This document shows positions 5,035 through 30,374 of a stretch of 47,034 nucleotides of DNA, piece after piece; within the stretch, counting starts at the first letter, position 1; every line of letters begins with the position of its first letter. Made by a program: the position numbers and the translations under genes. The DNA comes from Spirochaetota bacterium (GTDB lineage Bacteria; Spirochaetota; GWE2-31-10): assembly GCA_022361115.1 (NCBI GenBank), contig JAKSBL010000019.1, forward strand, positions 1-47,034, read 5' to 3'. Below the pieces are notes generated by a model. The model was not told the DNA's origin and did no database searches. It saw only the letters and a list, made by a program, of their open reading frames with translations.

Positions 5035-6546
5035 ATGGAAATAAAAATTGAAAAAAAAAGTGATATTCCTTTGTATATGCAAATACGTGATCAAATAATG
5101 GAACTGGTGAGTCAGGAAAAATTAGTACCTGGTACAAAGCTTCCTAACATAGCAGAATTTTCCCGTCAATTGGGAGTGACTCAGGCAACCATTAATCGGG
5201 CTTTTGAAGATCTTAGTCGAGATGGATATATTGAGTCACGCGTTGGACGAGGAACATTTATTAAAAAACCAGAATCAAATATTCCCCAGACTAGAAATAA
5301 AGTTGAGGAACCAGGATTTTCAAAAGATCCCCAAATTCAGATGGCTACTCGAAGAATGCGTATGGGAATATCTAAGAGCCTAGAAGCTCTGCAAATACTA
5401 TCTCAAAAACCGGGTTTACTCCATTTTACCTCTGGTATTCCGGATTCTCAGACGATACCTGTTGATATTTTATCCAGACTGACTGAAATGACATTAAAGG
5501 AAGGGCAGGTGGATTATTTAGGTTATGGTGATCCTAGAGGCTTAAATGAATTAAAAGTCGAGGTAGTTAACAAGCTTGGCAAACAGGGGATTGAGATAAC
5601 TCCTGAAAATGTTTTGATTACATCCGGATCCCAACAGGCTATCTCTTTAATGGCCCAATATGCCTTGGAAAATCAGTATCAAATACTCTGTGAAACCCCT
5701 TGTTATACGGGTGTGGCAAATGCTTTTGGAGCAATTGGCCATTGGGTAGAATCCGTAGGAAGAGAAAATCAGGGCCCGGATATCAATCGCTTGCACAAAA
5801 TTAAGTCTCAAGCTCAACACCTTTTTTATCTCTGTCCGGTTTTACATAATCCTACTGGTTTGAATTTAGATGAAAACAAAATGGAGGAGATTAAGGATTG
5901 GGCAATAAAAGGCAATCATTTGGTATTAGCTGATGAGATTTTTATTGACCTTGTGTTTGCAGAATCAAAGAATAAAAGTATTTATCAAATAATTGGTGAA
6001 AAAAACTGTGTTTTAGTTGGTTCATTATCAAAATCTTTCATGTGTGGTTTAAGGATAGGCTGGTTAATTACTGATAGCGAACGTATTCAATCTCTTAATG
6101 GTTTAAAAAAAGCAATGGATATTATGACTCCTCCCCTTATGCAAGGTATTGCAGCACAATTATTAAAATCCGGACTTTATGAAGAGCATATTGTTAAAGC
6201 AAGAAAACACTATCAAAAAAGGAGAGATAGTGCTTTACAAGCTTTAAAAACTTATATGCCTGAAGAAGTGAGATGGACAATGCCTCAAGGGGGATTTAAT
6301 ATGTGGGTTGAGTTGCCTCCTGGTTATTCCAGTATAAAACTTTATTTGCTGGCAATTGAAAAAGGTGTTGTTATTATTCCAGGGCCGAAGATGGATATTG
6401 ATCATCGCTATGTTAATTGTTTTCGTCTTGGTTATGGTTCAGTAAAACCCGATCAAATCAATGAAGGTATTGAGTTGTTATCTCAAGCAGTGAAACGGTT
6501 ACTTGCAGAACCAACAGATAATTTAACCAGTGGAGGATTTTTATAA
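5035..6546 (+). CDS. MocR-subfamily GntR regulator (wHTH plus fold-type-I aminotransferase-like domain); PdxR-like by context
   Basis: 503-aa ORF. N-terminal GntR wHTH ('PLYMQIRDQI...LPNIAEFSRQLGVTQATINRAFEDL'). C-terminal aminotransferase-like domain with 'SLSKSF' (candidate PLP lysine). Located immediately upstream of pdxS-pdxT. Confidence 0.8.
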   Translation: MEIKIEKKSDIPLYMQIRDQIMELVSQEKLVPGTKLPNIAEFSRQLGVTQATINRAFEDLSRDGYIESRVGRGTFIKKPESNIPQTRNKVEEPGFSKDPQIQMATRRMRMGISKSLEALQILSQKPGLLHFTSGIPDSQTIPVDILSRLTEMTLKEGQVDYLGYGDPRGLNELKVEVVNKLGKQGIEITPENVLITSGSQQAISLMAQYALENQYQILCETPCYTGVANAFGAIGHWVESVGRENQGPDINRLHKIKSQAQHLFYLCPVLHNPTGLNLDENKMEEIKDWAIKGNHLVLADEIFIDLVFAESKNKSIYQIIGEKNCVLVGSLSKSFMCGLRIGWLITDSERIQSLNGLKKAMDIMTPPLMQGIAAQLLKSGLYEEHIVKARKHYQKRRDSALQALKTYMPEEVRWTMPQGGFNMWVELPPGYSSIKLYLLAIEKGVVIIPGPKMDIDHRYVNCFRLGYGSVKPDQINEGIELLSQAVKRLLAEPTDNLTSGGFL

Positions 6547-6676
6547 TTCTATCAGTAAGTTGAGCAACATGTGATGGAGTGTGATTTAAAAAATTTAGAG
6601 TCAAATTTTATATTTTTAAGTTTTAGATAGCAGAAAAACAAATGGAGAAAATAAAAGTGTAAGGAAGGAGAATAAA

Positions 6677-7570
6677 ATGGAAAATACTAAAAAAAAGTCA
6701 ACCTGGGCTACAAAGGTCGGATTAGCTGAAATGTTAAAAGGCGGGGTAATTATGGATGTTACGACTGCTGAGGAAGCTAAAATTGCTGAAGATGCCGGAG
6801 CATCTGCTGTTATGGCTTTGGAAAGAGTACCAGCCGATATTCGACGTGATGGTGGTGTGGCACGAATGAGTGATCCTGAGATGATCTTAAAAATAAAAGA
6901 ATCAGTAAGTATCCCGGTTATGGCAAAATGTCGAATTGGCCACTTGGCAGAGGCTCAAATTTTACAAGCTATTGGAGTTGATTTTATTGATGAATCTGAA
7001 GTACTTACTCCTGCAGATGATGATTATCATATTAATAAGCATGATTTTGCCGTTCCCTTTGTTTGTGGATGTCGTGACTTAGGAGAAGCCTTACGAAGAA
7101 TTGGTGAAGGGGCCGCCATGATTCGTACAAAAGGTGAAGCAGGAACTGGAAATATTGTAGAGGCAGTTCGACATATGCGAACTGTCATGGATGGTTTGCA
7201 GCGGATTCAGATTTTATCAGCTGAACAACTAATGACAGAGGCTAAAAATCTGGGAGCTCCCTATGAACTTTTAGTACAGATAAAAAAAACAGGTAAATTA
7301 CCAGTTCCAAATTTTTCTGCCGGAGGAATAGCCTCACCTGCTGATGTTAGTTTAATGCGGCAATTAGGTGCTGAAGCAGTATTTGTTGGTTCTGGTATTT
7401 TTAAATCTCAGTATCCAGTCAGACGAGCTCGAGCAATTGTTGAAGCTTGTACCTATTATGATCTACCCGATAAGTTGGCAAAAATAGCAGAAGGGTTGGG
7501 GGAAGCAATGAGGGGCCTGGAGATTAGCCAAATCAATGAGAAAGAATTGCTGGCAACCAGGGGATGGTAA
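6677..7570 (+). CDS. pdxS: Pyridoxal 5'-phosphate synthase, lyase subunit PdxS
   Basis: 297 aa with near-canonical PdxS/SNZ sequence ('GGVIMDV', '[12 protein letters not shown]', 'VMAKCRIGH', '[11 protein letters not shown]', '[11 protein letters not shown]'). Strong GGAGA RBS. Confidence 0.95.
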
Positions 7571-7577
7571 CTCTGCT

Positions 7578-8144
7578 ATGAAAACCATTGGAGTATTAGC
7601 TTTACAGGGGGCTGTGGAAAAGCATTTAGCGAAAATCAAATTTTCAGGAAACAAAGGGGTAGCTATTCGTACCAATGAGGAGCTTTCTCAAATTGATGGT
7701 TTGATTTTGCCAGGTGGTGAGAGTTCAGTCATGAAAAAGCTGTTAATACAAAATAATATTTTGAATACTCTAAAAAGTAAAATACAATCTGGATTACCTG
7801 TATTTGGTACTTGTGCTGGTTTGATTTTACTAGCTAAAAGAATTGAAAATGATCAACCAACTTTAGAAGCGTTAAACATTACAGTCCAAAGAAATGGTTA
7901 TGGAAGTCAATTGGAAAGTTTTGAAGCCCCTTTAACTTATCACTTGAAAGTTCTTTCTGAAAAGAAAGCAATCTTTATCCGTGCTCCGGTAATCAAAGCT
8001 GTCGATCCAAAAGTAGAAATCTTAGCCAAACTGGATCAAACTCCAGTTATGGTTAGGCAAAAACATTTACTAGCAGCAACTTTTCATCCGGAATTAACCG
8101 AAAATTCAGCAGTGCACCAATATTTTATTAAAGAAATTTGTTAA
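7578..8144 (+). CDS. pdxT: PLP synthase glutaminase subunit PdxT
   Basis: 'MKTIGVLALQGAV', 'GTCAGLILL' (nucleophile Cys) and 'FHPEL' (His/Glu of the triad). I chose the ATG at 7578, 8 nt after the pdxS stop, over the ORF-track start at 7536, which overlaps pdxS and adds a non-homologous 14 aa. Confidence 0.9.
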   Translation: MKTIGVLALQGAVEKHLAKIKFSGNKGVAIRTNEELSQIDGLILPGGESSVMKKLLIQNNILNTLKSKIQSGLPVFGTCAGLILLAKRIENDQPTLEALNITVQRNGYGSQLESFEAPLTYHLKVLSEKKAIFIRAPVIKAVDPKVEILAKLDQTPVMVRQKHLLAATFHPELTENSAVHQYFIKEIC

Positions 8145-10397: not shown

Positions 10398-12617
10398 ATG
10401 AATACTACAGGTTCATTTACTATATCAGAGAGCAAACAATTATTGAAAAACATCTTTGGGTTTGAAGATTTTCGTTATTTGCAGGAAAAAGTCATTGCTA
10501 ATGTTTTAAAAAAAGAAGACACTTTGACTGTGATGCCTACTGGAAGCGGTAAGTCTCTTTGTTATCAAATTCCAGCTTTACAATTTTCTGGTTTAACAAT
10601 TGTTGTGTCTCCATTAATTGCTTTGATGAAAGATCAGGTAGAGCAGTTAGTACATGTAGGGATTCATGCCGCTTTTTTAAATAGTTCTCTCACTTTAGAT
10701 CAATATGAAATGGTGGTCCAACAGATAGTAACTAATGAATTGAAAATTCTCTTTGTGGCACCTGAGACTTTATTAAAACCTCGTGTCTTAAATTTACTAA
10801 GACAAAAAGATGTATCATTAATAGCTATTGATGAGGCTCACTGTATTTCTGCCTGGGGGCATGATTTTCGGCCAGAATATCGGCAGCTGATTGAAGTCAG
10901 GAAAGAAATACCTCAGGCAACTTGTTTGGCTTTAACAGCAACAGCAACACCTAGAGTGCGGGATGACATACAAAAATGTTTAGGCTTTACTAAAGAAAAT
11001 GTTTTTATCTCAAGTTTTGATCGACCGAATCTGCATCTGCAGGTGATAGCAAAGAAAAATCCAATCCCGCAAGTTGCGCTTTTTTTAGAACAACATGAAG
11101 ATCAGTCAGGAATTATTTACTGTTTGACGAGAAAGAGTGTAGATCAGTTAGCCAGTGTTTTACAAGAATCAGGTCATAGTGTATTACCATATCATGCTGG
11201 TATGACAGATAAAGAACGGATAGACAATCAGGAAGCTTTTATCAAAGATGATGTTAAGATTATGGTGGCTACTATTGCCTTTGGCATGGGAATAAATAAA
11301 CCTGATGTTCGTTTCGTTATTCATTATGATCTTCCCAAAAACCTGGAAGGGTATTATCAGGAGATTGGCCGTGCAGGCAGGGATGGTTTGCCTGCATCTT
11401 GCTTGCTCCTCTTTAGTTATCAGGATGTGATCAAAATAAAATATTTTATAGATCAGAAATCAGCAGAGGAACAATTAGTAGCACGTCACCAACTTGATGA
11501 GATGATCTCTTATGCTGAGAACCATATTTGCCGTAGAATTCCATTACTCCATTATTTTGGTGAGAAATATGAAAAAGAGCAGTGTGACCTTTGTGATAAT
11601 TGTCAGACTGATGACCGGGAAAAAACTGAAGTAACAGTTGGAACCCAAAAACTGCTCTCTTGTATCTATCGTACCGGACAAATATATGGTGCTGCTTATA
11701 TTAGTGATGTCTTACGAGGTTCCCAATCTCAAAAAGTTTTATCCAATAATCATGATCAGCTAACTACTTATGGAATAGGCAAAGAATATAGCCGACAGCA
11801 ATGGATGAATTTAACTCGTCAATTGGTACAGCAGAATTTTATCGAAAAGGATAAGCAATTTGGCAGTTTGCGATTAACCAGTAAAGCTTTGAGTTTTTTT
11901 AAACAATCCTACCCGATTTTTGCCTTTATGGAAGATGAAAAGATCCAAAAAGAAGATATTCCATTAGAAGCAGAGACACTTAATGGTGATGTAAAATTAT
12001 TAAAATTATTAAAAAACTTAAGAAAAGAAATAGCCGATTCTGAAGCTGTTCCTCCATATGTTATTTTCCATGACAAAACTCTTATCGATATGGCAACCTA
12101 TTATCCCTTAGATAAAAAAGCTATGTTAAGTATCCATGGAATCGGCCAGGCCAAATGGGAAAAATATGGACAACAGTTTATTGATTTCATTCAGGATTAC
12201 TGTAATACTGAGCAAATTGATCTTTTGAAAGTTCCTAAAAAACAACACAATCAGATTATCCAGATAACAAAAGAAGAGAAAGAAAAAACTAGAAAATTTA
12301 TGCAGGTCAGCCAGGCTTTTGTTAACAATCCAGATATTCATCAATTGCTTCAAAATTATCACATTAAATTAAAAACTGTGTTAAAGCATTTTTATACTTA
12401 TCTGCTTGAAGGATATTCTCTGCCGGCAGAACCTGTTTTAAAAGTATCGCAATTATCAGAACAGCAGATCGAGCAAATTATTAAACAATTTCAGCTACAG
12501 GGAACGAAATTTTTAAGACCTGTTTATGATTTTTTTAAAGGAACAATAAGTTTTGATGAGCTGGACATAAACCGTATTTATGTCATGGCTAAGGATAACA
12601 AAAATATATCTGAATAA
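10398..12617 (+). CDS. recQ: ATP-dependent DNA helicase RecQ (helicase core, RQC, HRDC and a C-terminal HTH-like extension)
   Basis: 'FGFEDFRYLQ', 'MPTGSGKSLCYQ', 'DEAHCISAWGHDFRPEY', 'ATIAFGMGINKPDVRFVIH' and 'QEIGRAGRDG'. Zn-binding Cys cluster 'CRR...CDLCDNC'. HRDC at about residues 533-602, then about 135 further residues. Confidence 0.92.
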   Translation: MNTTGSFTISESKQLLKNIFGFEDFRYLQEKVIANVLKKEDTLTVMPTGSGKSLCYQIPALQFSGLTIVVSPLIALMKDQVEQLVHVGIHAAFLNSSLTLDQYEMVVQQIVTNELKILFVAPETLLKPRVLNLLRQKDVSLIAIDEAHCISAWGHDFRPEYRQLIEVRKEIPQATCLALTATATPRVRDDIQKCLGFTKENVFISSFDRPNLHLQVIAKKNPIPQVALFLEQHEDQSGIIYCLTRKSVDQLASVLQESGHSVLPYHAGMTDKERIDNQEAFIKDDVKIMVATIAFGMGINKPDVRFVIHYDLPKNLEGYYQEIGRAGRDGLPASCLLLFSYQDVIKIKYFIDQKSAEEQLVARHQLDEMISYAENHICRRIPLLHYFGEKYEKEQCDLCDNCQTDDREKTEVTVGTQKLLSCIYRTGQIYGAAYISDVLRGSQSQKVLSNNHDQLTTYGIGKEYSRQQWMNLTRQLVQQNFIEKDKQFGSLRLTSKALSFFKQSYPIFAFMEDEKIQKEDIPLEAETLNGDVKLLKLLKNLRKEIADSEAVPPYVIFHDKTLIDMATYYPLDKKAMLSIHGIGQAKWEKYGQQFIDFIQDYCNTEQIDLLKVPKKQHNQIIQITKEEKEKTRKFMQVSQAFVNNPDIHQLLQNYHIKLKTVLKHFYTYLLEGYSLPAEPVLKVSQLSEQQIEQIIKQFQLQGTKFLRPVYDFFKGTISFDELDINRIYVMAKDNKNISE

Positions 12618-12890
12618 TAAGCAGGCTGCCTGTAATAGCATATTGGTTATAATGATATTTCCTGTCACTTCGATCAGAGATAAAATATATCTTTGTTTTT
12701 GGTGATTTTTGGATAAAAATCACACAGCAAAATTCACACCACTTTATCTTAATAAATTACATTTTCAAAATTCTGGAATCATTAAACACTTTTTTACTTT
12801 CCCTTTATTTTATCATGTTGAGGTAAATAATGTACCAGAAAGTTAGCAGATATTATGTTAGGTTTAATATAGAAACATGAGGAGTTGACT

Positions 12891-13160
12891 ATGTCAAAAC
12901 AATTAGATGAATTTCTTAAAAACTCAAAAGTTGCTGAAAAAATAAAGACTACCCCACAAGTGGTTTTGCAAACCTTGGAAACTTCCTCTGCAATGTTGGA
13001 AAAATATCGCCAGGAAGGAAAAATTATTTTACCCAATCATAGTAATAAATACCATTTAATGATTGATAATCAGCTGATCGCAGAAGGAGTGATGATTCAA
13101 AAACAAGGGCAGTCATATTTTAAAATTACCAAAATGTTAGAGCAAAAGGAGAGAGTATGA
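12891..13160 (+). CDS. Divergent SpoA (FliN/SctQ C-terminal type) domain protein
   Basis: 89 aa from the ATG at 12891 (GAGGAG 6 nt upstream); the ORF-track start at 12885 is a TTG. The C-terminal half 'KIILPNHSNKYHLMIDNQLIAEGVMIQKQGQSYFKITKMLEQKER' lines up by eye with FliN '[48 protein letters not shown]'. The stop overlaps the next start (ATGA). Confidence 0.5.
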   Translation: MSKQLDEFLKNSKVAEKIKTTPQVVLQTLETSSAMLEKYRQEGKIILPNHSNKYHLMIDNQLIAEGVMIQKQGQSYFKITKMLEQKERV

Positions 13161-13402
13161 AACTGGAAAGCATTGCAAAAATTGGTATTCCTGTAGAAGT
13201 TGTTTTAGGAGACTCCTGTTTATCAGTGGATCAAATAGCAAAAATCGGAGAAGGTTCCATTATTCGACTGGATAGTATTGCCGGAGAACCAGTAGAATTT
13301 CGAGCAGCAGGAGAAAAGATTGCTTTAGGTGAAGTGATTATTATTGAAGATAATTTTGGTATTCGTATCACTAGAATCTTAACAGGAGAAGAGGATGAAT
13401 AA
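13157..13402 (+). CDS. fliN: FliN-family (SpoA domain only) protein
   Basis: 81 aa. 'IPVEVVLGDSCLSVDQIAKIGEGSIIRLDSIAGEPVEFRAAGEKIALGEVIIIEDNFGIRITRIL' is a canonical FliN/SpoA domain. GGAGAG RBS. It overlaps both neighbouring genes. Confidence 0.85.
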   Translation: MKLESIAKIGIPVEVVLGDSCLSVDQIAKIGEGSIIRLDSIAGEPVEFRAAGEKIALGEVIIIEDNFGIRITRILTGEEDE

Positions 13403-15188
13403 CAAGTATGTTAAGGAAAATTTTATTAATATCAATTGTCATGATGATCAAATTCCCAGAATTAAAATTTACAATTTTAGACGGCCTGATAAGTTTTCTC
13501 GTGATCAAATTCGGACAATTAGTATTATTTATGAAACCTTTGCACATCAGGCAAGTTTTACACTTTCATCCAGCCTTAGAACAGAAGTAATTTTACATGT
13601 TAAATCAGTAGATCAATGTACCTATGAAGAATTTGTTTTATCCAGTTCCAATCCGAGTGTATTTGGAGTATTTCAATCTTCACCTCTCTATGGTAAATTT
13701 ATTATTGCATTAGAAAATGAAATTTTGTTTGCTATGTTAGATCGTGCTTTTGGTGGATCCGGAGAGTTAAGAAAGCTCAAAATCAATCGTGAAATAACCC
13801 GGTTTGAGGCAGCTTTTATAGAAAAAATCTTGGTCGATAGATTGTTTAAGGATCTGGAGAATGGCTGGTCAAGAATTATAAAAGTTCGGAATCAGCTGGA
13901 GCGATTAGAGGTAAATCCCCAATTTGTTCAAATAATTCCTCCATCCGATATGGTTGTTGTGGTGATGTTAAAAATAAATATTGGTGATCAAGAAAGGCGA
14001 ATTTTTTTTTGTTTACCCTATATTACTTTAGAACCAATAGTCCATCGCTTAAGTGGGCAAAATTGGTATGCAATGCAGAAGAAAAGAGCTCCTAGTGAAT
14101 CCTTTCTAACCAAATTAGCTGATTTAAAATCTGATTCAGTGATTTATACTCCAGTTGAAAAATTGTCATTAAGTAAATTATCAAATTTAAAAAAAGGAGA
14201 TTGTCTTCGTCTTTCCGAATTTCATGAACATACTGCTTACTTAAGGGTTCAGAATAAAAATATTTTTCAATTAAAAAAAGTAAAAGAACAAAAAAAAGAT
14301 TTCAATGAATTTACTATTTTGAATAAAGGAGATAGTTTTCCAAATTCTACAATAATCCCTCTAAAGAAAAATGATAGGGATAATGAAATTTATCTTCCTG
14401 AATGGGTAAGTCAAATTCAAAAAATGATAGCTTCTTTTAATGATCAACTTCTGGACATCCAAAACAAACAGGATGAATTGACCGATCAAATCTCTTTTAG
14501 TCATTCTCAAGGTAGAAAAGAGGAACTAGAAGAAAAACCATTTCATTTTATACATCAATTAGATCCTGTTCAGTTTTTTACAATGATTCAATATGAGCAT
14601 CCACAACTGTTAGCTTTTTTATTTTCCTATTTAGAAGCCGCTTATGCTGCACAAGTCATTGATATGTATTCTGAAGAAATGCAAGCTGAAATATTACACA
14701 GGATTAAAAATCTACAGTCAGTTACTCCACAATTAATAAAAGATTCAGAATCATTGCTAAAAACCAAGATGAGTATTATTGAAAATGAACGATTTTGCTC
14801 TTCAGGTGGAATGGAACAAGTAGAAGAGATTATCCAGTTTTTTGATAAAGAAAGTGAAAAGCGTTTAGTTTCTCGTTTAGATGATACCGAAGCTGATATT
14901 CAAGTAGGTAGTTCAAAAAAAATATCTCGGATGAATTTATCTCAATTGAATTCACAACAAATGAAATTAATTCTAGAAAAGTTAGATGATAAAGATCGTT
15001 TAATACTTTTACATTATTTTAATGGATTAAATGTGACAGATTACTTAAACAGCCTGGATGATGAGGCAAGAACCCATTTACAAAATAATATTTACCAAAT
15101 ATCTAATGCTAAACCTATTGAAATTAGTGATTCTGTGACCAGAGTTTATCAAATTATTGAGGAGTTAAAGGAAGAAGGGATATTTTAA
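13395..15188 (+). CDS. fliM: FliM (N/middle plus SpoA C-domain) fused to FliG middle and C-terminal domains, in one 597-aa polypeptide
   Basis: Residues ~24-215 read as FliM ('YNFRRPDKFSRDQIRTISIIYETFA', 'LDRAFGGSGE' GGxG motif, 'CLPYITLEPI'). Residues ~235-310 read as the FliM SpoA domain ('LSKLSNLKKGDCLRL...AYLRVQNKNIF'). Residues ~385-597 read as FliG_M/FliG_C ('YEHPQLLAFLFSYLEAAYAAQV...EMQAEILHRI', 'SSGGMEQVEEII', 'LILEKLDDKDRLILL', 'IIEELKEEGIF'). The frame is continuous with no internal stop. Confidence 0.75.
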   Translation: MNNKYVKENFININCHDDQIPRIKIYNFRRPDKFSRDQIRTISIIYETFAHQASFTLSSSLRTEVILHVKSVDQCTYEEFVLSSSNPSVFGVFQSSPLYGKFIIALENEILFAMLDRAFGGSGELRKLKINREITRFEAAFIEKILVDRLFKDLENGWSRIIKVRNQLERLEVNPQFVQIIPPSDMVVVVMLKINIGDQERRIFFCLPYITLEPIVHRLSGQNWYAMQKKRAPSESFLTKLADLKSDSVIYTPVEKLSLSKLSNLKKGDCLRLSEFHEHTAYLRVQNKNIFQLKKVKEQKKDFNEFTILNKGDSFPNSTIIPLKKNDRDNEIYLPEWVSQIQKMIASFNDQLLDIQNKQDELTDQISFSHSQGRKEELEEKPFHFIHQLDPVQFFTMIQYEHPQLLAFLFSYLEAAYAAQVIDMYSEEMQAEILHRIKNLQSVTPQLIKDSESLLKTKMSIIENERFCSSGGMEQVEEIIQFFDKESEKRLVSRLDDTEADIQVGSSKKISRMNLSQLNSQQMKLILEKLDDKDRLILLHYFNGLNVTDYLNSLDDEARTHLQNNIYQISNAKPIEISDSVTRVYQIIEELKEEGIF

Positions 15189-15267: not shown

Positions 15268-16062
15268 ATGAGTAATAGATTGCATTCTCTTTTTCCATTT
15301 GCAGTAAATAGCTTCTTAAGTAAATATACACTAAAAGAACTAGATAAACGATATTATCATATTATCTATTACCAGGATGCAAAGGTTACTATAAATGGAC
15401 AGCAGTATAATGGATCGTTTATTTTTGGTGAAGCTAAGGATAACCAGTTAACAGCCAAAATCCAACAATTAAAAATAGCAAAAATTATCAACTTTGATCC
15501 AATTTTGTTTTCCAGTTATTCTTTAAATGAATTTGAAAAAAGTATTATAGATGACTTTTTTGGGGATTTTTCTATTATTCCATTGGTAAACAAAGACTCT
15601 CATCACATCAAATTAATAATCAATGTGTTGGAAGAGGAATTTAAAAAAAAAGCTAAAGGGTATCATACGATTATCCGGTCTCGATTGTTAGAGTTATTCG
15701 TTTATATATTTCGAGCTAAAGAAAATAATCAAAAACAGAATAATGCTGAACCTCCTATATTAAAACTTACAAATTATATTAAGAACCATTTTGAAAAAGA
15801 TATTCAGTTATTAGAGTTGGCAGATTTACTAGGATGGAATCCCAGTTATCTGTCCAGAGTATTTAAGGAAAAAAATGGTGTGAATATTTTTTATTATATT
15901 AGTCAATTAAGGATTAGGGAGGCCTGTCGGTTGCTAAAAACTACAAATTTTTCGATTATTGAGATTTCTGAACAGGTCGGATTTAATAACCTTACTTCTT
16001 TTAATCGAACTTTTAAGAAGATAACAAATCGCTCTCCAAGAGATTATCGAGGTAATAAATAA
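15268..16062 (+). CDS. AraC/XylS family transcriptional regulator
   Basis: The C-terminal 100 aa carry the double HTH ('LADLLGWNPSYLSRVFKEK...', 'ISEQVGFNNLTSFNRTFKKITNRSPRDYR'). Confidence 0.85.
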   Translation: MSNRLHSLFPFAVNSFLSKYTLKELDKRYYHIIYYQDAKVTINGQQYNGSFIFGEAKDNQLTAKIQQLKIAKIINFDPILFSSYSLNEFEKSIIDDFFGDFSIIPLVNKDSHHIKLIINVLEEEFKKKAKGYHTIIRSRLLELFVYIFRAKENNQKQNNAEPPILKLTNYIKNHFEKDIQLLELADLLGWNPSYLSRVFKEKNGVNIFYYISQLRIREACRLLKTTNFSIIEISEQVGFNNLTSFNRTFKKITNRSPRDYRGNK

Positions 16063-18689: not shown

Positions 18690-19886
18690 ATGTACGTACT
18701 TGTTTTTAACTGTGGTTCTTCTTCCATCAAATATCAACTGATTGATATTAATACTAAGGAAGCAAAATGTCGTGGATTATTAGAAAGAATTGGATTAACT
18801 GGTTCAAAGTTAACTCATCGTCTTGGTGAAGATAAACATATCATTGAAAAAGATATTGATAATCATGATATGGGAGCAAAAGTAATTTTTGATACAGTAA
18901 CTGATGCTAAAATGGGAGCCATTTCTGATTTAGGTGAAATCAGAGTGGTAGGTCACCGAGTTGTTCATGGTGGTGAAAACTATTCTCAAGCTGTTTTGAT
19001 AAACGGTGATGTTGAAAAAACAATTGAAGACTGTTTTGATTTAGCCCCTCTGCATAATCCAGCTAATCTCATGGGAATTCAAGCTTGTAAGAAGTTATTA
19101 GGAGATATTCCCCAGGTTGCCGTTTTTGATACTGCCTTTCATCAAACCATGCCTAAACATGCATATCTCTATGCTATTCCTTATGATTATTATACGAAAC
19201 ATAAAATTCGCCGTTATGGATTTCATGGTACCAGTCATAAGTATGTTTCTGAACGTGCAGCAGAAATCTTAGGTAAAAAATATGATGATTTAAAGATCAT
19301 TACCTGTCATTTAGGAAATGGTGCTTCAATTGCAGCAATCAAACATGGGAGATCAGTGGATACTTCAATGGGATTTACTCCATTAGCTGGTTTAATCATG
19401 GGAACCCGTTCTGGTGATATTGACCCTTCTATTGTTCCATTTTTGATGAAAGCGGAAGAGTTGAATGAAAAAGATGTTGACACCATTATGAACAAACATT
19501 CAGGTGTTCTGGGTATATCTGGTATTTCTTCTGATATGAGAGATATTGAAAACAAAGCCTGGAATGAAAAAAATGAACGGGCTCAATTAGCTTTAGATAT
19601 GTACCACTACCGTATTACTCAATATATTGGTGCTTATGCTGCAGCTATGAATGGGGTAGATGTGATTATTTTTACTGGTGGCGTTGGTGAGAAAGGCTCA
19701 GAAACAAGAGAAGAAATACTGAAAAACCTTTCCTATCTGGGAGTTAATCTAGATAAAGAGAAAAATAAACCACGTGGTGAAGAAATCATTGTAACAACAG
19801 CAGATTCTAAAACTATTGCTATGGTTGTACCAACCAATGAGGAATTAGAAATCGCCATGGAATCTTTAAAGATTGTAAATAAATAA
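18690..19886 (+). CDS. ackA: Acetate kinase
   Basis: 398 aa with 'VLVFNCGSSSIKYQL', 'GHRVVHGG', 'APLHNPANL', 'FDTAFHQTMP', 'YGFHGTSH', 'CHLGNGASI' and 'GGVGE'. Confidence 0.93.
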   Translation: MYVLVFNCGSSSIKYQLIDINTKEAKCRGLLERIGLTGSKLTHRLGEDKHIIEKDIDNHDMGAKVIFDTVTDAKMGAISDLGEIRVVGHRVVHGGENYSQAVLINGDVEKTIEDCFDLAPLHNPANLMGIQACKKLLGDIPQVAVFDTAFHQTMPKHAYLYAIPYDYYTKHKIRRYGFHGTSHKYVSERAAEILGKKYDDLKIITCHLGNGASIAAIKHGRSVDTSMGFTPLAGLIMGTRSGDIDPSIVPFLMKAEELNEKDVDTIMNKHSGVLGISGISSDMRDIENKAWNEKNERAQLALDMYHYRITQYIGAYAAAMNGVDVIIFTGGVGEKGSETREEILKNLSYLGVNLDKEKNKPRGEEIIVTTADSKTIAMVVPTNEELEIAMESLKIVNK

Positions 19887-24375: not shown

Positions 24376-25965
24376 GTGAAAGTTCGATTACAGTTGTTTT
24401 TTAAAGATCGAATTGGAATTGTGGCTGAGATAACTGCCTTATTGGTAGATTATGATGTGAATATTACTGCTATGGAAGTCAATCGTAATTCAAATCATGC
24501 AGAAGTCTATCTGGAAGTTGAGGTAGGAAAGCAAAACCTTAATCGAGATGCTTATTATCATATGCTGAGTAAAATTTCAGATTTAAAAGAGATCAACTTT
24601 ATTGAAACACTCCCTTTTGAAGAAAAGGAAAACCGGTCTCAGGTTATCTTAAATAATATCAATGAGGGGGTTCTTTCTATTGATAATCAGGGTAAAATTA
24701 CCATGATCAATCAGTTTGCCCAAAAGATCCTGAATTGTAAACAGGATGAAGTGATCGGACAAGGCATTCAAAGTCTGAATTTGCCTGATTACTCCATTCT
24801 GGATTGCTTAAAAGGGAGAACTTTTGATAATCTGAAACAGGATCTGATTACTACCAATAAACGAATTCAGTTTTTTGCCTCAGGAAAACCAATCTATGAC
24901 TCCAATCATCAAATTATTGGTGCTGTCGAGATAATGAAAGATATGAAGGATATTAAAGATCTGGCAAAAACCTTATCTCAACCCCAGCAAATCAATTTTA
25001 GTGATTATATTGGAAAACACACAGCTGTTTGGGAAGCCATTTCCTTTGCTCAAAAAATAGCTCAAACTGATTCTATTATTTCTTTACGTGGTGAAAGTGG
25101 GACCGGGAAAGAGCTATTTGCCAGGGCAATTCATACTGAAAGTTGTCGAACTGGTTCTTTTGTTGCAATTAATTGTGCTGCTTTGCCGGAAGCATTACTG
25201 GAAAGTGAACTTTTTGGTTATGTTGGAGGTGCATTTACTGGAGCAAAAAAAGAAGGAAAACCTGGTTTGTTTGAGATTGCTAATAATGGTACAGTTTTTT
25301 TAGATGAAATTGGAGAAATGCCTATAAATCTCCAGGCAAAAATGTTGCGATTAATTCAAGAACAAAGGATTCGTAGAATAGGGGGAGCCAAAGAAATTGC
25401 TATAAATACCCGGATTATTACTGCTACTAATAAAGAATTGGAAAAAATGGTTAAAGAAAAAACATTTCGAGAAGATTTTTATTATCGAATTAATGTATTG
25501 CCTGTTTATCTTCCTCCCTTGAGGGAGCGTAAAGAAGATATTCCCATTTTAGTCGAGCATTTTTTATTTCAACTCTCTTCCAAATTGGATCAACCCAATA
25601 AAGTGATGACAGAACAGGCTCTGGAAAAACTAATGTGTCACAACTGGCCAGGTAATATTCGGGAGCTTCGTAATGTAATTGAACGAGCAGCTATTCTTTC
25701 AGATGAAACAAATATTGATGAAAGTAGAATTGTTTTTAGTCATGAGATTACAGAAAACAGAAAAGGACTAAAAAAAATCATACTAACAAACAAAATCAAA
25801 AATCATTCTCTATCTGCTATGCTGGATCGTCATGAAAATAAAATTTTATCTGAAGTTTTGCAAACTTCTAAAAGTATCCGTCAAGCTGCAAAATCTTTAG
25901 GAATTTCCCATAGCACTCTTATCAATAAGATTAAAAAATACAAACTGGCAGTGGTTACAAAATAA
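24376..25965 (+). CDS. Sigma-54-dependent transcriptional activator, TyrR-like architecture (ACT, PAS, AAA+, Fis-type HTH)
   Basis: 529 aa with a GTG start after AGAGGAGG. N-terminal ACT-like 'FKDRIGIVAEITALL'. PAS ('NINEGVLSIDNQGKITMINQFAQKIL'). Walker A 'GESGTGKE'. Intact 'GAFTGA'. 'WPGNIRELRNVIERA'. C-terminal HTH 'SIRQAAKSLGISHSTLINKIKKY'. Confidence 0.9.
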   Translation: MKVRLQLFFKDRIGIVAEITALLVDYDVNITAMEVNRNSNHAEVYLEVEVGKQNLNRDAYYHMLSKISDLKEINFIETLPFEEKENRSQVILNNINEGVLSIDNQGKITMINQFAQKILNCKQDEVIGQGIQSLNLPDYSILDCLKGRTFDNLKQDLITTNKRIQFFASGKPIYDSNHQIIGAVEIMKDMKDIKDLAKTLSQPQQINFSDYIGKHTAVWEAISFAQKIAQTDSIISLRGESGTGKELFARAIHTESCRTGSFVAINCAALPEALLESELFGYVGGAFTGAKKEGKPGLFEIANNGTVFLDEIGEMPINLQAKMLRLIQEQRIRRIGGAKEIAINTRIITATNKELEKMVKEKTFREDFYYRINVLPVYLPPLRERKEDIPILVEHFLFQLSSKLDQPNKVMTEQALEKLMCHNWPGNIRELRNVIERAAILSDETNIDESRIVFSHEITENRKGLKKIILTNKIKNHSLSAMLDRHENKILSEVLQTSKSIRQAAKSLGISHSTLINKIKKYKLAVVTK

Positions 25966-26021
25966 ACCACTGGTCAAAAATCTAACCACTGAATGGTTAT
26001 TATTGGTTACAAAATAAACCA
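25952..26021. promoter_or_regulatory. Candidate upstream activator sites (repeated palindromes) for the ald sigma-54 promoter
   Basis: Perfect 18-bp direct repeat tggttacaaaataaacca at 25952-25969 and 26004-26021, each roughly TGGTT-N8-AACCA. Between them lies the palindrome taacca-ctgaa-tggtta (25983-25999). The sites are 170-240 bp upstream of the -24/-12 element. Confidence 0.45.
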
Positions 26022-26191
26022 TTACTATTAAAGTTATAATCAAATTGTAATCTTATAAAAAAAAATTTACTTTATAACCTTTATAAAAATTTTTCAAAAA
26101 CTCAAAATTTGCAAAAATATCATCTTTTATCTCTCATATTAGGTTAAAACAATCATATAAACCCAAATTAAATTTCCGATCATGATTTCAT

Positions 26192-26207
26192 TGGCATGCT
26201 GATTGCT
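26192..26207 (+). promoter_or_regulatory. Sigma-54 (-24/-12) promoter of ald
   Basis: TGGCAT-gctga-TTGCT (GG at 26193-26194, GC at 26205-26206). About 37 nt upstream of the ald ATG, with AGGAGG in between. Confidence 0.65.
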
Positions 26208-26243
26208 AATTTAGTGTTCAAAGTACAAATTTAGGAGGATTCA

Positions 26244-27380
26244 ATGATCGTTGGAATCTTGAAGGAGATCAAAACTGCAGAAAACCGAGTCTGCATGACT
26301 CCTGCAGGTGTCGAAATGATGACCCAATTTGGGCACCGGGTCTTAGTAGAAAAAGAAAGTGGTGTTAGAAGCGGATTTTCTGATCAGGAGTATATTGATC
26401 ATGGTGCTGAAATTATCTATACACCAAAAGAGATTTTTGACCAGGCAGAAATGATTATGCATGTAAAAGAGCCTTTGCCATCAGAGTATGAGTTTATCCG
26501 TAAAGATCAAATTATCTTTACTTATCTTCATTTGGCTGCAAAAAAATCATTAACTCAAGCATTAATCAAAAGTAAATCAATTTGCATTGCTTATGAAACC
26601 ATTCAAAAAGCTGACCAATCGTTGCCCTTGTTAACGCCTATGAGTGAAGTTGCTGGACGTATGGCTACTCAGCAGGGAGCAAAATATTTGGAAATGACGC
26701 AAGGTGGGCTTGGTGAATTATTAGGTGGTGTTCCCGGTGTAAATCCCGGTACAGTTGTTGTCATTGGAGGCGGAGTGGTTGGTGTCAATGCTGCTAAAAT
26801 GGCTTGCGGTTTGGGGGCAAGAGTTTATTTGCTTGACCTGGATTTAGATCGATTACGCTATCTTTCTGATGTTATGCCAAGTAACTGTATTCCATTAATG
26901 TCCAATCCTGTAACTGTCCGGCAACTAATTAAAGATGCAGATCTGGTCATTGGCGCAGTTTTAATACCTGGAGCCAAAGCACCAAAACTCATATCTAAAG
27001 ATATGCTTAAAACCATGAAAAAAGGTGCCATATTGGTTGATGTTGCTATTGATCAAGGTGGTTGTTTTGAAACTTCAAAACCTACTAATCATACCCAACC
27101 CACTTATATTATTGATGGTGTCATTCATTATTGTGTGACAAATATGCCTGGTGCCGTACCCAAAACATCTACCATTGCTTTGACAAATGCTACATTACCT
27201 TATGCATTAGAAATTGCTAATAAAGGTTGGAGAAAGGCCATGTTAGAAAATGATGAAATAAAATATGGAGCTAACATCATCAAAGGCAAAGTCACTTATC
27301 AAGCTGTTGCTGCTGCTTTTGAGATGAAGTATACACCAATTGAAGAACTTTTAAATGAGAAGGCTCTTGCAAGTGTTTAG
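26244..27380 (+). CDS. ald: Alanine dehydrogenase
   Basis: 378 aa with 'MIVGILKEIKTAENRVCMTPAGV', 'GGGVVGVNAAKMACGLGA' (NAD fold), 'DVAIDQGG' and 'HYCVTNMPGAVP'. Confidence 0.93.
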   Translation: MIVGILKEIKTAENRVCMTPAGVEMMTQFGHRVLVEKESGVRSGFSDQEYIDHGAEIIYTPKEIFDQAEMIMHVKEPLPSEYEFIRKDQIIFTYLHLAAKKSLTQALIKSKSICIAYETIQKADQSLPLLTPMSEVAGRMATQQGAKYLEMTQGGLGELLGGVPGVNPGTVVVIGGGVVGVNAAKMACGLGARVYLLDLDLDRLRYLSDVMPSNCIPLMSNPVTVRQLIKDADLVIGAVLIPGAKAPKLISKDMLKTMKKGAILVDVAIDQGGCFETSKPTNHTQPTYIIDGVIHYCVTNMPGAVPKTSTIALTNATLPYALEIANKGWRKAMLENDEIKYGANIIKGKVTYQAVAAAFEMKYTPIEELLNEKALASV

Positions 27381-27514
27381 TAGTAAGAGCTCTCAATCAA
27401 AAATGATTAAAAATACAAACAAGACATTTTATGTCTATTGATATTGAAAGATAAACTATCTTTTTTATACAAATGAATCAAGAACGGTATTTAAGGTGAG
27501 AAAGGAAGTAAATT

Positions 27515-28897
27515 ATGGAAAATATTATGCAAACAATTGAAATGGTTATTGGTAAAGTCGGAGCCTTTGCCTGGGGACCTCCAATGCTGATTTTATTGGT
27601 TGGAACAGGTTTTTGGTTAACTTTTGCTTTGAGAGGAATTCAATTCAGAAAGTTATGGGGATCATTGTATTTAGGACTCATTAAACGAAAGGATTCTGAT
27701 CATGGTGAAGGGGACATCAGTCATTTTCAAGCATTAATGACCGCTTTATCAGCTACAGTTGGGACTGGAAATATAGCTGGTGTAGCCACAGCAGTTGCAG
27801 CTGGTGGTCCTGGTGCTTTGTTCTGGATGTGGATAACTGGCTTAGTTGGGATGGCTACGAAATATTCAGAAGCATTATTAGCTGTAAAATATCGAGAAAA
27901 AGATGAAGCTGGTAATATGAGCGGAGGGCCAATGTACTATATTTCCAAAGGTTTAGGTTGGAAATGGTTGGGAATGCTGTTTGCCATATTTGCTGCTGTT
28001 GCTGCTTTTGGAATAGGTGATATGGTCCAATCAAATTCTATTGCTGCAGCTGTCAACGCAACTTTTAATATCCCTCCATTAGTAACTGGAATGATTCTGA
28101 TGGTTTTTACTGCACTGGTTGTTTTAGGAGGTATTAAAAGTATTGGTATGGTAACTGGCGTTTTAGTACCTATTATGATTGTCTTTTATATGGGGGGAGC
28201 TTTAGTAATCATTTTATTAAATATTTCTGGTGTTCCTGCTGCAATTGCTTTAATAGTAAAGCATGCCTTTACTCCTACAGCTGCAGCTGGTGGATTTGCT
28301 GGTTCTGCTGTAATGCTGGCAATGAGAATGGGGGTATCTCGAGGTGTATTTTCTAATGAATCTGGTTTAGGCAGCTCTCCTATAGCTGCTGCAGCTGCCC
28401 AGACAAAACATCCTGTCACCCAGGCTCTGGTTTCAATGTCCCAAACCTTTATTGATACTATCGTAGTTTGTACTATGACCGGTTTAGTGTTAGTTCTGAC
28501 AGGTGCCTGGACAAGTGGTAAAACCGGAGCAGAATTAACAGTAATGGCTTTTCAAAAAGGTATTTGGGGAGGAAATTACATTGTTACTATTGGTTTAATT
28601 TTATTTGCATACTCCACTATTTTAGGGTGGTGCTACTATGGAGAAAAATCAGTAGAATATATTTTTGGTATTAAATCAGTCATGCCTTATCGTATCTTGT
28701 TTATTATCTTTGTTGGAGTTGGTTCAGTTGCACAATTAAATCTGGTCTGGTCTTTATCTGATACTTTCAATGGCTTAATGGCAATACCAAACTTAATTGG
28801 TTTGTTGTTATTAACACCAGTCATTGTTAAGGAAACGAATAAACATTTTCAATTAAAGAAGGAGGAACAAATAACTGGCAACAATTTAAAGAACTAA
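27515..28897 (+). CDS. Sodium:alanine (alanine/glycine:cation) symporter, AGCS family
   Basis: 460 aa, polytopic, with '[30 protein letters not shown]' and '[17 protein letters not shown]', both AGCS hallmarks. Confidence 0.9.
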
Positions 28898-29120: not shown

Positions 29121-30374
29121 GTGAAGAACACTAAAATATTGGTTATTAATTGCGGATCCTCATCATTGAAATATCAATTGATTAGTATGCCACAGGGTAC
29201 TATGTTAGCCAAAGGCAATGTAGAACGGATTGGAGATATTAAAAAAGCTTTCATTTATCAAAAGACCAGTGATGGTAGAGAGCTCATCAAGAAATCTGGA
29301 GAAATGAAAAATAATTTACTACTTGCTGATCATAAGGCTGCTTTTCAGTATGTTATTGAAGCTTTAATTGAAAAAAAATTTGGAATTTTAAATGGTTTGA
29401 AGGACATAGATATCGTTGCTCATCGTGTTGTTCATGGTGGAGAACATTATCGCGATTCAGTAATGGTAACTAAGGAGGTTTTAAAGGTTATTGAGGATCT
29501 GTCTGATCTAGCTCCCTTACACAATCCGGCAAATGTACAGGGAATTCGTTCTGCTCTGGAAGTTTTACCTGGTGTTCCTCAAACAGCTACCTTTGATACA
29601 GCATTTCATCAAACGATACCAGAACATGCTTATCGATATGCTCTGCCAACTGAATTGTATGAGAAGTATAAAATTCGTAAATATGGTTTTCATGGAACTT
29701 CTCACCGTTATGTTGCCAATCAGGCTGTTCAAATGCTGAATCGATCGATTGAAAATACCAATCTCATTAGCTGTCACTTAGGAAATGGCTGTTCCATAAC
29801 AGCAATTGCAGGTGGAAAATCTGTTGATACTTCCATGGGTTTTACCCCTTTGGAAGGATTAATGATGGGAACTCGATGCGGAGATATAGATCCAGCTATT
29901 ATTCCTTATCTGGTTATGGATAAAGGGTACAATATTGAGGAAGTGAATACAATTCTCAATAAATGTAGTGGAGCATTAGGATTATTTGAGAAAACCAACG
30001 ATATGCGGGATATTGTAGAAGCTGCTAAAGGTGGAGATAAAAAGGCTCAATTAACCCTGGATATCTATACCTATCGGATTAAAAAATACATTGGAGCCTA
30101 TTGTGCTCTGTTGATTAAAGTGGATGCCTTGATTTTTACAGGTGGAGTAGGGCAAAATAGCTGGTTTTTAAGAGAGATGATCTGTAAGTATTTGCAGAAT
30201 ATTGGAATTCATCTGGATAAAGAACAGAATAAAATCACAGGTTGTAAGACTGGCCAGATTTCTTTTGATTATTCTCCCATCACAATCTTAGTTGTTCCAA
30301 CAAATGAAGAACAGCAAATGGCAATGGATGCTTACCAGTTGGTTGGCACAAAAAAATTAAAGAAAGTGGTTTAA
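29121..30374 (+). CDS. ackA: Second acetate/propionate kinase family paralog
   Basis: 417 aa with a GTG start after AAGGGAG. 'ILVINCGSSSLKYQL', 'AHRVVHGG', 'APLHNPAN', 'FDTAFHQTIP', 'YGFHGTSH', 'CHLGNGCSI' and 'GGVGQ'. Confidence 0.85.
   Translation: MKNTKILVINCGSSSLKYQLISMPQGTMLAKGNVERIGDIKKAFIYQKTSDGRELIKKSGEMKNNLLLADHKAAFQYVIEALIEKKFGILNGLKDIDIVAHRVVHGGEHYRDSVMVTKEVLKVIEDLSDLAPLHNPANVQGIRSALEVLPGVPQTATFDTAFHQTIPEHAYRYALPTELYEKYKIRKYGFHGTSHRYVANQAVQMLNRSIENTNLISCHLGNGCSITAIAGGKSVDTSMGFTPLEGLMMGTRCGDIDPAIIPYLVMDKGYNIEEVNTILNKCSGALGLFEKTNDMRDIVEAAKGGDKKAQLTLDIYTYRIKKYIGAYCALLIKVDALIFTGGVGQNSWFLREMICKYLQNIGIHLDKEQNKITGCKTGQISFDYSPITILVVPTNEEQQMAMDAYQLVGTKKLKKVV

Follow-up and report, generated by a model that had tools for sequence, protein, structure and literature searches.

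A conserved cassette of flagellar switch-complex parts, with a natural FliM-FliG fusion, in Spirochaetota

The flagellar motor's cytoplasmic ring (C ring) is among the best-studied molecular machines. Here we describe a small gene cassette made of parts of that ring, found on contig JAKSBL010000019.1 of a Spirochaetota bacterium (GenBank assembly GCA_022361115.1; GTDB lineage Bacteria; Spirochaetota; GWE2-31-10); the stretch of DNA analysed, hereafter the window, is the whole 47,034-bp metagenomic contig. Three structural genes, named ORF1, ORF2 and ORF3 after their open reading frames (ORFs), encode a divergent SpoA-domain protein, a FliN, and a protein in which FliM is fused to the middle and C-terminal domains of FliG (FliG_M and FliG_C). 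They lie in the order SpoA-fliN-fliM::fliG, with a RecQ gene upstream and a gene for an AraC-family regulator downstream (Table 1), and they are translationally coupled: ORF1 and ORF2 overlap by an ATGA (13157-13160), ORF2 and ORF3 overlap by 8 nucleotides (nt; 13395-13402), and a separate Shine-Dalgarno sequence precedes the start of ORF2 and that of ORF3. There are two candidate starts for ORF1, a TTG at 12885 (used in a program-made ORF list) and an ATG at 12891; a GAGGAG ribosome-binding site lies 7 nt upstream of the ATG, and the public gene call for the protein (P0192, 89 amino acids, aa) also begins there. Scans for promoters and terminators around the cassette gave no signal above shuffled background.

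Table 1. Cassette genes of the window, domains of the fusion protein and adjoining features (nt positions; aa numbers within domain rows are those of ORF3)
Feature	Position	Strand	Evidence
Intergenic region upstream of the cassette, presumed promoter/operator	12618..12890	+	Sequence read; regulatory role inferred
GAGGAG ribosome-binding site of ORF1	about 12878-12883	+	Sequence read
ORF1, 89-aa divergent SpoA (FliN-like) protein	12891..13160	+	hhalign, Foldseek, weak Pfam
ORF2, 81-aa FliN, SpoA domain only	13157..13402	+	Pfam FliMN_C, TIGR02480
ORF3, 597-aa FliM::FliG(M+C) fusion	13395..15188	+	Pfam, TIGR00207, AlphaFold2, Foldseek
FliM middle (CheC-like) domain, aa 26-219; GGSG (GGxG) at aa 120-123	13470..14051	+	Pfam FliM 1e-53
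FliM C-terminal SpoA domain, about aa 240-310	14112..14324	+	Weak Pfam, hhalign, Foldseek
Family-specific linker helix, aa 334-368, after disordered aa 312-333	14394..14498	+	AlphaFold2 secondary structure
FliG middle domain (ARM-M), aa 384-468; EHPQ at aa 401-404	14544..14798	+	Pfam FliG_M 4.5e-16
Degenerate FliG C-terminal region (ARM-C + six-helix domain), aa 473-595	14811..15179	+	phmmer to 1lkv 1.4e-24 over aa 380-595
AraC/XylS-family regulator, fourth conserved cassette member	15268..16062	+	Pfam HTH_18 5.6e-21

The longest product of the cassette, ORF3, joins a FliM to a FliG that begins at its middle domain. Sequence matches in the PDB are to crystal structures of the FliM middle domain (FliM_M; 3e-29) and to the Thermotoga FliG middle and C-terminal domains (FliG_MC; 1lkv, 5e-24). 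Against the NCBIfam models, ORF3 scores 209.6 bits with TIGR01397 (FliM), just under the 219.6-bit equivalog cut-off, and matches TIGR00207 (fliG) with 6e-27, aa 378-595 corresponding to model positions 106-324. Since that match covers only these model positions, the N-terminal domain of FliG (FliG_N) is missing. The Pfam match to FliG_M spans aa 392-463; FliG_C alone is weak (E = 0.026), as is FliMN_C over the C-terminal domain of FliM (FliM_C; E = 0.029, aa 256-292), for which a comparison of the fusion-family region with cassette FliN in hhalign gives 91.7%.

A structural model of ORF3 made with AlphaFold2 (AF2) from 65 aligned fusions has a mean pLDDT (predicted local distance difference test) of 80 and a pTM (predicted template modelling score) of 0.56. 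Its order from the N terminus is a FliM_M at aa 30-230 (pLDDT >90), a SpoA-type beta unit at aa 248-308, a disordered stretch and a long helix, a FliG_M (pLDDT >90), and a helical FliG_C region at aa 473-593 with pLDDT 65-88. In Foldseek comparisons, the modelled FliM_M matches 4fhr_A and 4fq0_A with template modelling (TM) scores of 0.94-0.96, the FliG_M matches 4fq0_C with a TM score of 0.94, and the first 295 columns can be superposed on a complete FliM chain of the Salmonella C ring solved by cryo-EM (8wiw_7, E = 3.5e-19). The junction of FliM and FliG lies exactly at the RPF-x-F motif that opens FliG_M. The possibility that the linker helix is a remnant of FliG_N was rejected (hhalign, 3%).

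ORF2 is a FliN that consists of a single SpoA domain. It matches Pfam FliMN_C (4e-18) and TIGR02480 fliN (9e-20), the latter at 70.4 bits, under the trusted cut-off of 84.05, and it carries the GEVVV-x-D-x-x-F-G-V/I-R-I core by which FliN is recognised, here as GEVIIIEDNFGIRIT. To the FliN proteins of other cassettes it is 46-56% identical (33% for L053, the most divergent), and these share the conserved core GEV(V/I)(V/I)I-(D/E)-(E/D)-N-F-G-I-R-I-T. For ORF1 the Pfam match is weak (FliMN_C, E = 0.073), and other comparisons carry the assignment: in hhalign, an alignment of ORF1-type proteins from 13 loci matches that of the cassette FliNs (94.5%, E = 7e-8); the best PDB sequence matches are the SpoA domains of SpaO and of Thermotoga FliN; and an AF2 model built from database homologues, of low confidence (pLDDT 65), has SpoA domains as all of its top 29 Foldseek matches in the PDB, those of SpaO, Spa33 and HrcQb being the best. 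Because these matches agree, ORF1 is, as far as sequence and model can tell, a cryptic SpoA protein. Its family shares the motif C-E-L-E-x-G-G-Q-x-x-A-R-G-R-I-V-R-R-R-G-x-x-F-F-K-V, a profile search finds 164 members (almost all of them 'hypothetical' proteins of 72-104 aa), and an ORF1-type gene is the first of the trio in all loci compared. One family member (P0208), on a 2.4-kb contig, is labelled as coming from a Desulfobacterales metagenome-assembled genome (MAG), which could reflect either mis-binning or an occurrence outside Spirochaetota. A tandem pair of small SpoA-like genes (L005:8955-9350 and L005:9496-9753) is found on the 202-kb contig of the fusion P0007, the first of the pair encoding 132 aa with a C-terminal extension.

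These results bear out the gene assignments of the original prediction, which was made from the letters of the window alone. It had read three translationally coupled ORFs, now supported by the overlaps and Shine-Dalgarno sequences, as a cryptic SpoA-domain protein (profile-profile and Foldseek matches agree), a minimal 81-aa FliN (FliMN_C and TIGR02480) and a FliM fused to the middle and C domains of FliG (Pfam, TIGR00207 and Foldseek); the profile hidden Markov model (HMM) searches that it had proposed as a check support SpoA, FliN, FliM and FliG_M/C alike.

The fusion belongs to a large and diverged family. A protein search over 5.8 billion clusters returned at least 65 proteins of 596-640 aa with the FliM + FliG_M + FliG_C architecture; these are 26-33% identical to the window fusion, and the next matches are canonical FliMs, which align to the first half only, at 38-45%. 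When a profile of the fusion family was searched against 1.84 billion cluster representatives (50% identity, about 15 billion proteins), more than 100 full-length fusions were found, among which the window fusion ranks 44th with 618 bits. Used as a single query against named genomes, the window fusion gave no match. Genomic contexts were compared for the window and for L001-L011, L026, L053 and L167-L170 (8 protein contexts and 7 further loci in named genomes), of which L001-L006 and L167-L170 were annotated with Pfam and L007-L011, L026 and L053 were available as ORF listings.

Across these loci a four-gene set recurs nearly everywhere: an AraC regulator (188-284 aa in the annotated loci), a small protein of 80-99 aa that has no Pfam match and is homologous to ORF1 of the window, a FliN of 78-83 aa, and the fusion, the structural trio being tightly packed. 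The exceptions concern the linkage of the AraC gene: the contig of L008 ends about 165 nt upstream of the trio, and in L007 an AraC ORF is likely, though unscanned. In most loci the regulator gene lies upstream of the trio; the window, L009 and L170 have it directly downstream. The cassette AraC proteins align over their full length, with 19-32% identity between the window copy and the others, and outside the helix-turn-helix (HTH) domain they have a central G-Y-x-x-M-x-R-L-K-L-x-E-L motif in common. The surroundings of the cassette differ between loci, and no flagellar Pfam match lies within 10 kb on either side of it in the ten annotated loci. In the window itself, a Pfam scan that took in every ORF of 100 aa or more showed none of the genes fliF, flhA/B, fliPQR, fliHIJ, mot and che in the 47 kb; because the window is an entire contig, this absence says nothing about the rest of the genome.

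These comparisons bear on what had been claimed about the surroundings of the trio. That there are no other flagellar genes in the 47 kb is correct, as a statement about this contig. The proposed comparison of neighbourhoods shows a trio conserved as an isolated unit, not a piece of an ordinary flagellar operon, and the observation that fliN precedes fliM is confirmed, SpoA-fliN-fliM::fliG being unlike the motAB-fliL-fliM-fliN order. The flanks had also been placed correctly, with recQ on one side and an AraC regulator on the other, but the latter is no random neighbour: it is the fourth member of the cassette.

Other genes are found next to single cassettes. In a Spirochaetales MAG (JAFGQL01; L168:7436-10883) a CbbQ/MoxR-type AAA_5 ATPase of 279 aa starts 2 nt after the fusion and is followed by an 873-aa protein without Pfam match; the two may be a lineage-specific addition to the cassette. 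Signalling genes (GGDEF, SpoIIE, HAMP) occur near the cassettes of L001, L004, L005 and L167, with no consistent linkage established.

Both the distribution and the phylogeny of the fusions point to Spirochaetota. A search of 185,579 species representatives gave seven full-length fusion matches, each of them in a Spirochaetota MAG. In neighbor-joining (NJ) trees with 30 bootstraps, the FliM parts of 66 fusions, including that of the window, are monophyletic against 54 canonical FliMs in 30/30 replicates; the FliG_MC parts are monophyletic in 22/30, and in 21 of these 22 their sister group consists of canonical Spirochaetota FliGs only. The FliG_MC of P0007, a typical fusion, is 55-61% identical to canonical spirochaete FliG. 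With a mean identity of 45% among fusions, versus 80% among spirochaete FliGs, the fusions evolve faster. The window fusion falls inside the fusion clade (30/30 for the FliM part, 618 bits) on a long branch, and identity between its FliG_MC and any other in the comparison is about 22%. The trees and the shared gene order argue for a single duplication and fusion event within Spirochaetota, from the switch-complex genes of the host. Other genes of the window agree with its phylum to different degrees: one AckA shares 73% identity with its best match, from a Spirochaetota MAG (next match 62%; flanks of the best match not syntenic) and AroA is 64-65% identical to those of Spirochaetota MAGs, while the matches of RecQ, at no more than 54% identity, are spread over many phyla and the best relative, on a 966-kb contig, is not syntenic. 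On the evidence of AckA and AroA, the DNA most probably comes from a deep-branching spirochaete of low GC content. The lineage of the window is thus an isolated one, as no RecQ homologue exceeds 54%.

Among the relatives, two proteins (P0286 and P0333) are single chains in which FliM and FliG_M/C are accompanied by two additional SpoA domains; the torque charges are lost. By the Rosetta-stone argument, such single chains suggest that the three cassette products act as one complex. Further architectures were seen once or twice: P0313 (1123 aa) combines FliM, two SpoA domains and FliG_N, M and C; P0264 and P0328 have FliM, DUF4116 repeats, FliG_M and FliG_C, and keep the K/R/E/D torque residues, P0264 retaining the CheY peptide as well; P0356 has FliM, DUF4116 repeats and FliG_M with no FliG_C match; and P0373 joins FliM to a full-length FliG.

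What has been conserved in the fusion family is the set of contacts within a C-ring protomer. Over 65 aligned fusions, the few invariant or near-invariant columns include those of the FliM YDF-RPDKFS segment, the glycines of GGxG (G120 and G121 are (near-)invariant) and the E, H, P and Q of EHPQ, in which E401 and Q404 are invariant; GXXG and EHPQR form the interface of FliM_M and FliG_M in the motor (PMC7355467). Also nearly invariant are Q359 and D364 of the linker helix. In the FliG part, the ARM-C segment (AGG...EILN..R..EK) and the KKRMFVFEDI segment are conserved, the latter containing the MFXF hinge, a described element (PMC7355467), of which F511, V512 and F513 are kept at 90% or more. 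The window fusion lacks the MFVFEDI hinge and reads ISRM-NLSQL.

What has been lost are the contacts with the rest of the motor. By the coverage of TIGR00207 and by hhalign of the linker, FliG_N was not found in the fusions; in the motor this domain, FliG_D1, is the one that attaches to FliF and through which torque reaches the MS ring (PMC11087270). MotA/B bind at the torque helix (PMC11087270), whose charged residues were followed in an alignment of 77 canonical FliGs (31 from Spirochaetota, 46 others), 61 fusions and Thermotoga FliG, in E. coli numbering. Canonical FliGs are essentially invariant: K264 in 77/77, R281 in 77/77, D/E at 288 in 77/77, D/E at 289 in 76/77 and R297 in 77/77. In the fusions, position 281 is R in 0/61 (E20, A12, S5, G5, D5, T5), A, K or S predominate at position 288, and most residues at position 289 are non-acidic, with R in 28, while K264 (K54/R7) and R297 (R57) persist; the window fusion has H/E/N/N/K at the five positions. 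The three residues erased family-wide, R281, D288 and D289, are established as important for contact with MotA (reportedly by Lloyd and Blair 1997 and by Zhou, Lloyd and Blair 1998). Such an erasure in an otherwise well-conserved FliG_MC is surprising for motor specialists.

The input from chemotaxis has mostly gone as well. The docking peptide for phosphorylated CheY (CheY-P), LSQxEIDxLL, is present in 51 of 54 canonical FliMs versus about 5-10 of 66 fusions, leaving about 85% of the family without it, and it was not found in the N terminus of the window fusion. A recognisable peptide is seen in a minority (P0005, P0006, P0008, P0010, P0023, P0037 and P0065), P0065 carrying the canonical version MAEVLSQDQIDQLL at its N terminus. 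These fusions look ancestral, and since a minority still hold the peptide, the pattern suggests that CheY input was lost stepwise within the family. The window copy is, on these alignments, the most degenerate and most diverged member seen.

Judged from sequence, then, the cassette encodes every piece of one C-ring protomer—FliG_MC, FliM and the SpoA partners—and keeps the contacts inside that protomer together with the ring-forming ARM elements, while it has shed the links to the MS ring, to the stator and, in most members, to CheY. We hypothesize, tentatively and with slightly less than even confidence, that it provides, under certain conditions, a C-ring protomer that has no anchor, is blind to the stator and modulates the normal motor. 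Conditional expression is implied by the dedicated AraC regulator: a signal sensed by this partner would switch the cassette on. In the products, FliM_M would bind FliG_M through GGxG and EHPQ, and FliM_C with the two FliN-type proteins would form a SpoA base; in Salmonella the base of the C ring is built of FliM_C:FliN heterodimers and FliN homodimers (PMC11087270). Because FliM and FliN of the C ring exchange dynamically (PMC7355467), such blank protomers could co-assemble into the normal ring, or they could instead compete for its components. Either way the outcome would be that torque and switching are damped or re-tuned and that no rotation is generated. If the proteins do enter or compete with the rotor, they would constitute a new genetically encoded motor throttle, with a bearing on motor control in spirochaetes; if they never touch the motor, they would represent an exaptation of rotor parts.

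Several points weigh against the throttle hypothesis. A protomer that has no FliG_N would have no evident means of being held in a ring, and binding of FliG_M to FliM_M in cis would leave that site of FliM unavailable to the resident FliG. The torque helix, with its altered surface, could have acquired another partner instead of having none. The arrangement of domains in the AF2 model is predicted with moderate confidence (pTM 0.56), the NJ trees are simple distance trees with the fusions on long branches, and the window copy, which lacks the MFVF hinge and K264, may work differently or be decaying.

As an alternative, the cassette might encode a scaffold that stands on its own, resembles a C ring or a sorting platform and has been recruited to a task outside flagella, with the re-surfaced FliG_C helix and the basic RRRG patch of ORF1 binding new partners. 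We consider this unlikely, although it would account for a cassette that is unlinked to flagellar genes, has its own regulator, evolves fast and has lost the MS-ring, stator and CheY connections with all intra-protomer contacts retained. What it leaves unaccounted for is a partner, as no candidate (membrane protein, ATPase or secretion gate) is conserved beside the cassette, and a distribution confined to a phylum of flagellated bacteria; the canonical CheY-P peptide of several members, like the resemblance of a typical FliG_MC to motor FliG, argues for a continued dialogue with motility components.

Less probable still is a decoy: a soluble look-alike complex that stays outside the ring and titrates FliH-FliI, brakes of the PilZ/YcgR type, CheY-P or factors of the CheX/CheC type. 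A dedicated transcription factor fits such a titration device, as does the missing motor anchor; docking surfaces are conserved on FliN (the hydrophobic-patch region around GEVVVI), on FliM_M and on FliG_M/ARM-C, and some members have kept the CheY-P peptide. Most members have lost that peptide, however, and a sponge would hardly seem to need a whole protomer, complete with its three SpoA domains and the ARM elements that form rings. We are similarly doubtful of a C-ring-like assembly that is independent of MS ring and stator and has a function of its own, whether as a regulated cytoplasmic scaffold outside motility or as the long-sought structural determinant by which a spirochaete's motors behave differently at its two poles, some of the rotors being turned into a distinct state; if this were true, machinery of flagellar descent would have gained a new functional class, beyond one more paralogue.

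That the trio is simply a set of working fliN, fliM and fliG genes, scattered and fused, we hold to be very improbable. Some spirochaetes do have scattered flagellar genes, and two natural fusions (P0264, P0328) retain the torque residues; engineered FliF-FliG fusions work in Salmonella (PMC7355467). But FliG_N and the CheY peptide are gone, as are R281, D288 and D289, and the genes form a separate, fast-evolving clade beside the canonical FliM and FliG of spirochaetes. We have therefore not filed the trio as the fliG, fliM and fliN of the organism, because ORF3 lacks defining features of FliG and FliM and the FliN and FliM scores lie below the NCBIfam equivalog cut-offs. Least credible of all is a decaying remnant or an assembly artefact (frameshift or chimeric contig), for which the strongly degenerate FliG_C region of the window might speak: the frame is open over 597 codons in a genome of 33% GC, the genes are tightly coupled with good ribosome-binding sites, the same architecture occurs in more than 100 diverged clusters, and the AF2 model is well folded. 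Two other candidates were rejected: an anti-phage defence system, as none of the four proteins has a PADLOC match, and an injectisome sorting platform, given the presence of FliM_M and FliG domains and the absence of sct genes nearby.

The broader suggestion of the original prediction, an accessory C-ring variant or a module co-opted for another use, stands, because profile HMMs support the domains, the trio recurs in isolation, and a literature search turned up no account of such a cassette or of any FliM-FliG fusion in nature; the last result also upholds the statement that the system had not been characterised. A self-contained module, as it was also called, is unlikely in the motor sense, the module being devoid of FliG_N and of the stator-contact charges.

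Compared with the flagellar C ring of Salmonella, Thermotoga, Helicobacter and Borrelia, the cassette has the same FliM_M with GGxG, the SpoA domains of FliM_C and FliN, the FliG_M with EHPQ, ARM-C and the C-terminal domain. It differs in carrying FliM and FliG in one polypeptide without FliG_N, in the family-wide loss of R281, D288 and D289 and the loss from most members of the CheY-P peptide, and in an extra, highly diverged SpoA protein. In contrast to a canonical switch operon, it lies outside flagellar operons, has a dedicated AraC gene and follows the order SpoA-FliN-FliM::FliG.

The FliG1/FliG2 pair of Borrelia burgdorferi offers a partial likeness, as an extra rotor-protein paralogue of Spirochaetota encoded away from the main flagellar operon. 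Borrelia FliG1 is a stand-alone full-length FliG and, to our knowledge, is neither fused to FliM nor accompanied by FliN paralogues or an AraC gene; the FliG part of the fusions branches beside the canonical motor FliG. Of the two Borrelia paralogues, one is not needed for flagellar synthesis and has an asymmetric localisation (review, PMC7225975).

Covalent linkage of rotor proteins has precedents in the laboratory. An engineered FliM-FliN fusion of Salmonella was reportedly made by Kihara et al. in 1996, and an engineered Salmonella FliF-FliG fusion has shown that such linkage is compatible with C-ring assembly (PMC7355467). Those constructs are of complete proteins in a normal operon, whereas the cassette fusion is natural, has a novel helix of about 35 residues between FliM_C and FliG_M, and has FliG_N deleted.

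In their proposed outcome the blank protomers resemble motor brakes and clutches (YcgR/PilZ, EpsE, MotI, and FtgA of Actinoplanes), which are reported to reduce or arrest motor output conditionally at the FliG-MotA interface or the C ring (PMC12713396, PMC11522434). The resemblance would be one of functional analogy, with no relationship of sequence or fold: brakes and clutches are small effectors that bind rotor or stator, whereas the proposed effector of the cassette is a defective rotor protomer. With the sorting platform of injectisomes (SctQ/SpaO/YscQ) the cassette shares the SpoA fold of ORF1 and ORF2; injectisomes have no FliG or FliM_M homologue in the arrangement of the cassette, and the cassette FliN and FliM are phylogenetically flagellar and spirochaetal. 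The cassette amounts to a natural domain dissection of the C ring carried out over more than 100 diverged lineages, with internal contacts kept and external ones removed, that to CheY in most members, and the fixed 1:1 linkage of FliM to FliG, together with the Rosetta-stone relatives, makes these proteins natural constructs for structures of the C-ring protomer.

The other genes of the window serve metabolism and regulation. They encode PdxST, PdxJ, two acetate kinases, an EPSP (5-enolpyruvylshikimate-3-phosphate) synthase and an alanine dehydrogenase, as well as a sigma-54 activator and a response regulator with a GGDEF domain. PdxS and PdxT follow a regulator of the GntR-aminotransferase (PdxR/MocR) type at 5035-8144, and PdxJ lies beside AcpS at 35213-35932, so that parts of both routes of pyridoxal 5'-phosphate biosynthesis occur in one organism. 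The RecQ upstream of the cassette (10398-12617, 739 aa) has a C-terminal HTH_40 extension, an architecture widespread across many phyla. The acetate kinase paralogues at 18690-19886 and 29121-30374, about 10 kb apart, are about 55% identical (tblastx), the first being the AckA with the 73% match. At 24376-28897 a TyrR-like sigma-54 activator (ACT + PAS + AAA + HTH) is encoded directly upstream of the genes for alanine dehydrogenase and for a symporter of Na+ and alanine, and these genes probably form an alanine-responsive regulon. The gene at 41728-42645 encodes a response-regulator diguanylate cyclase (REC + GGDEF).

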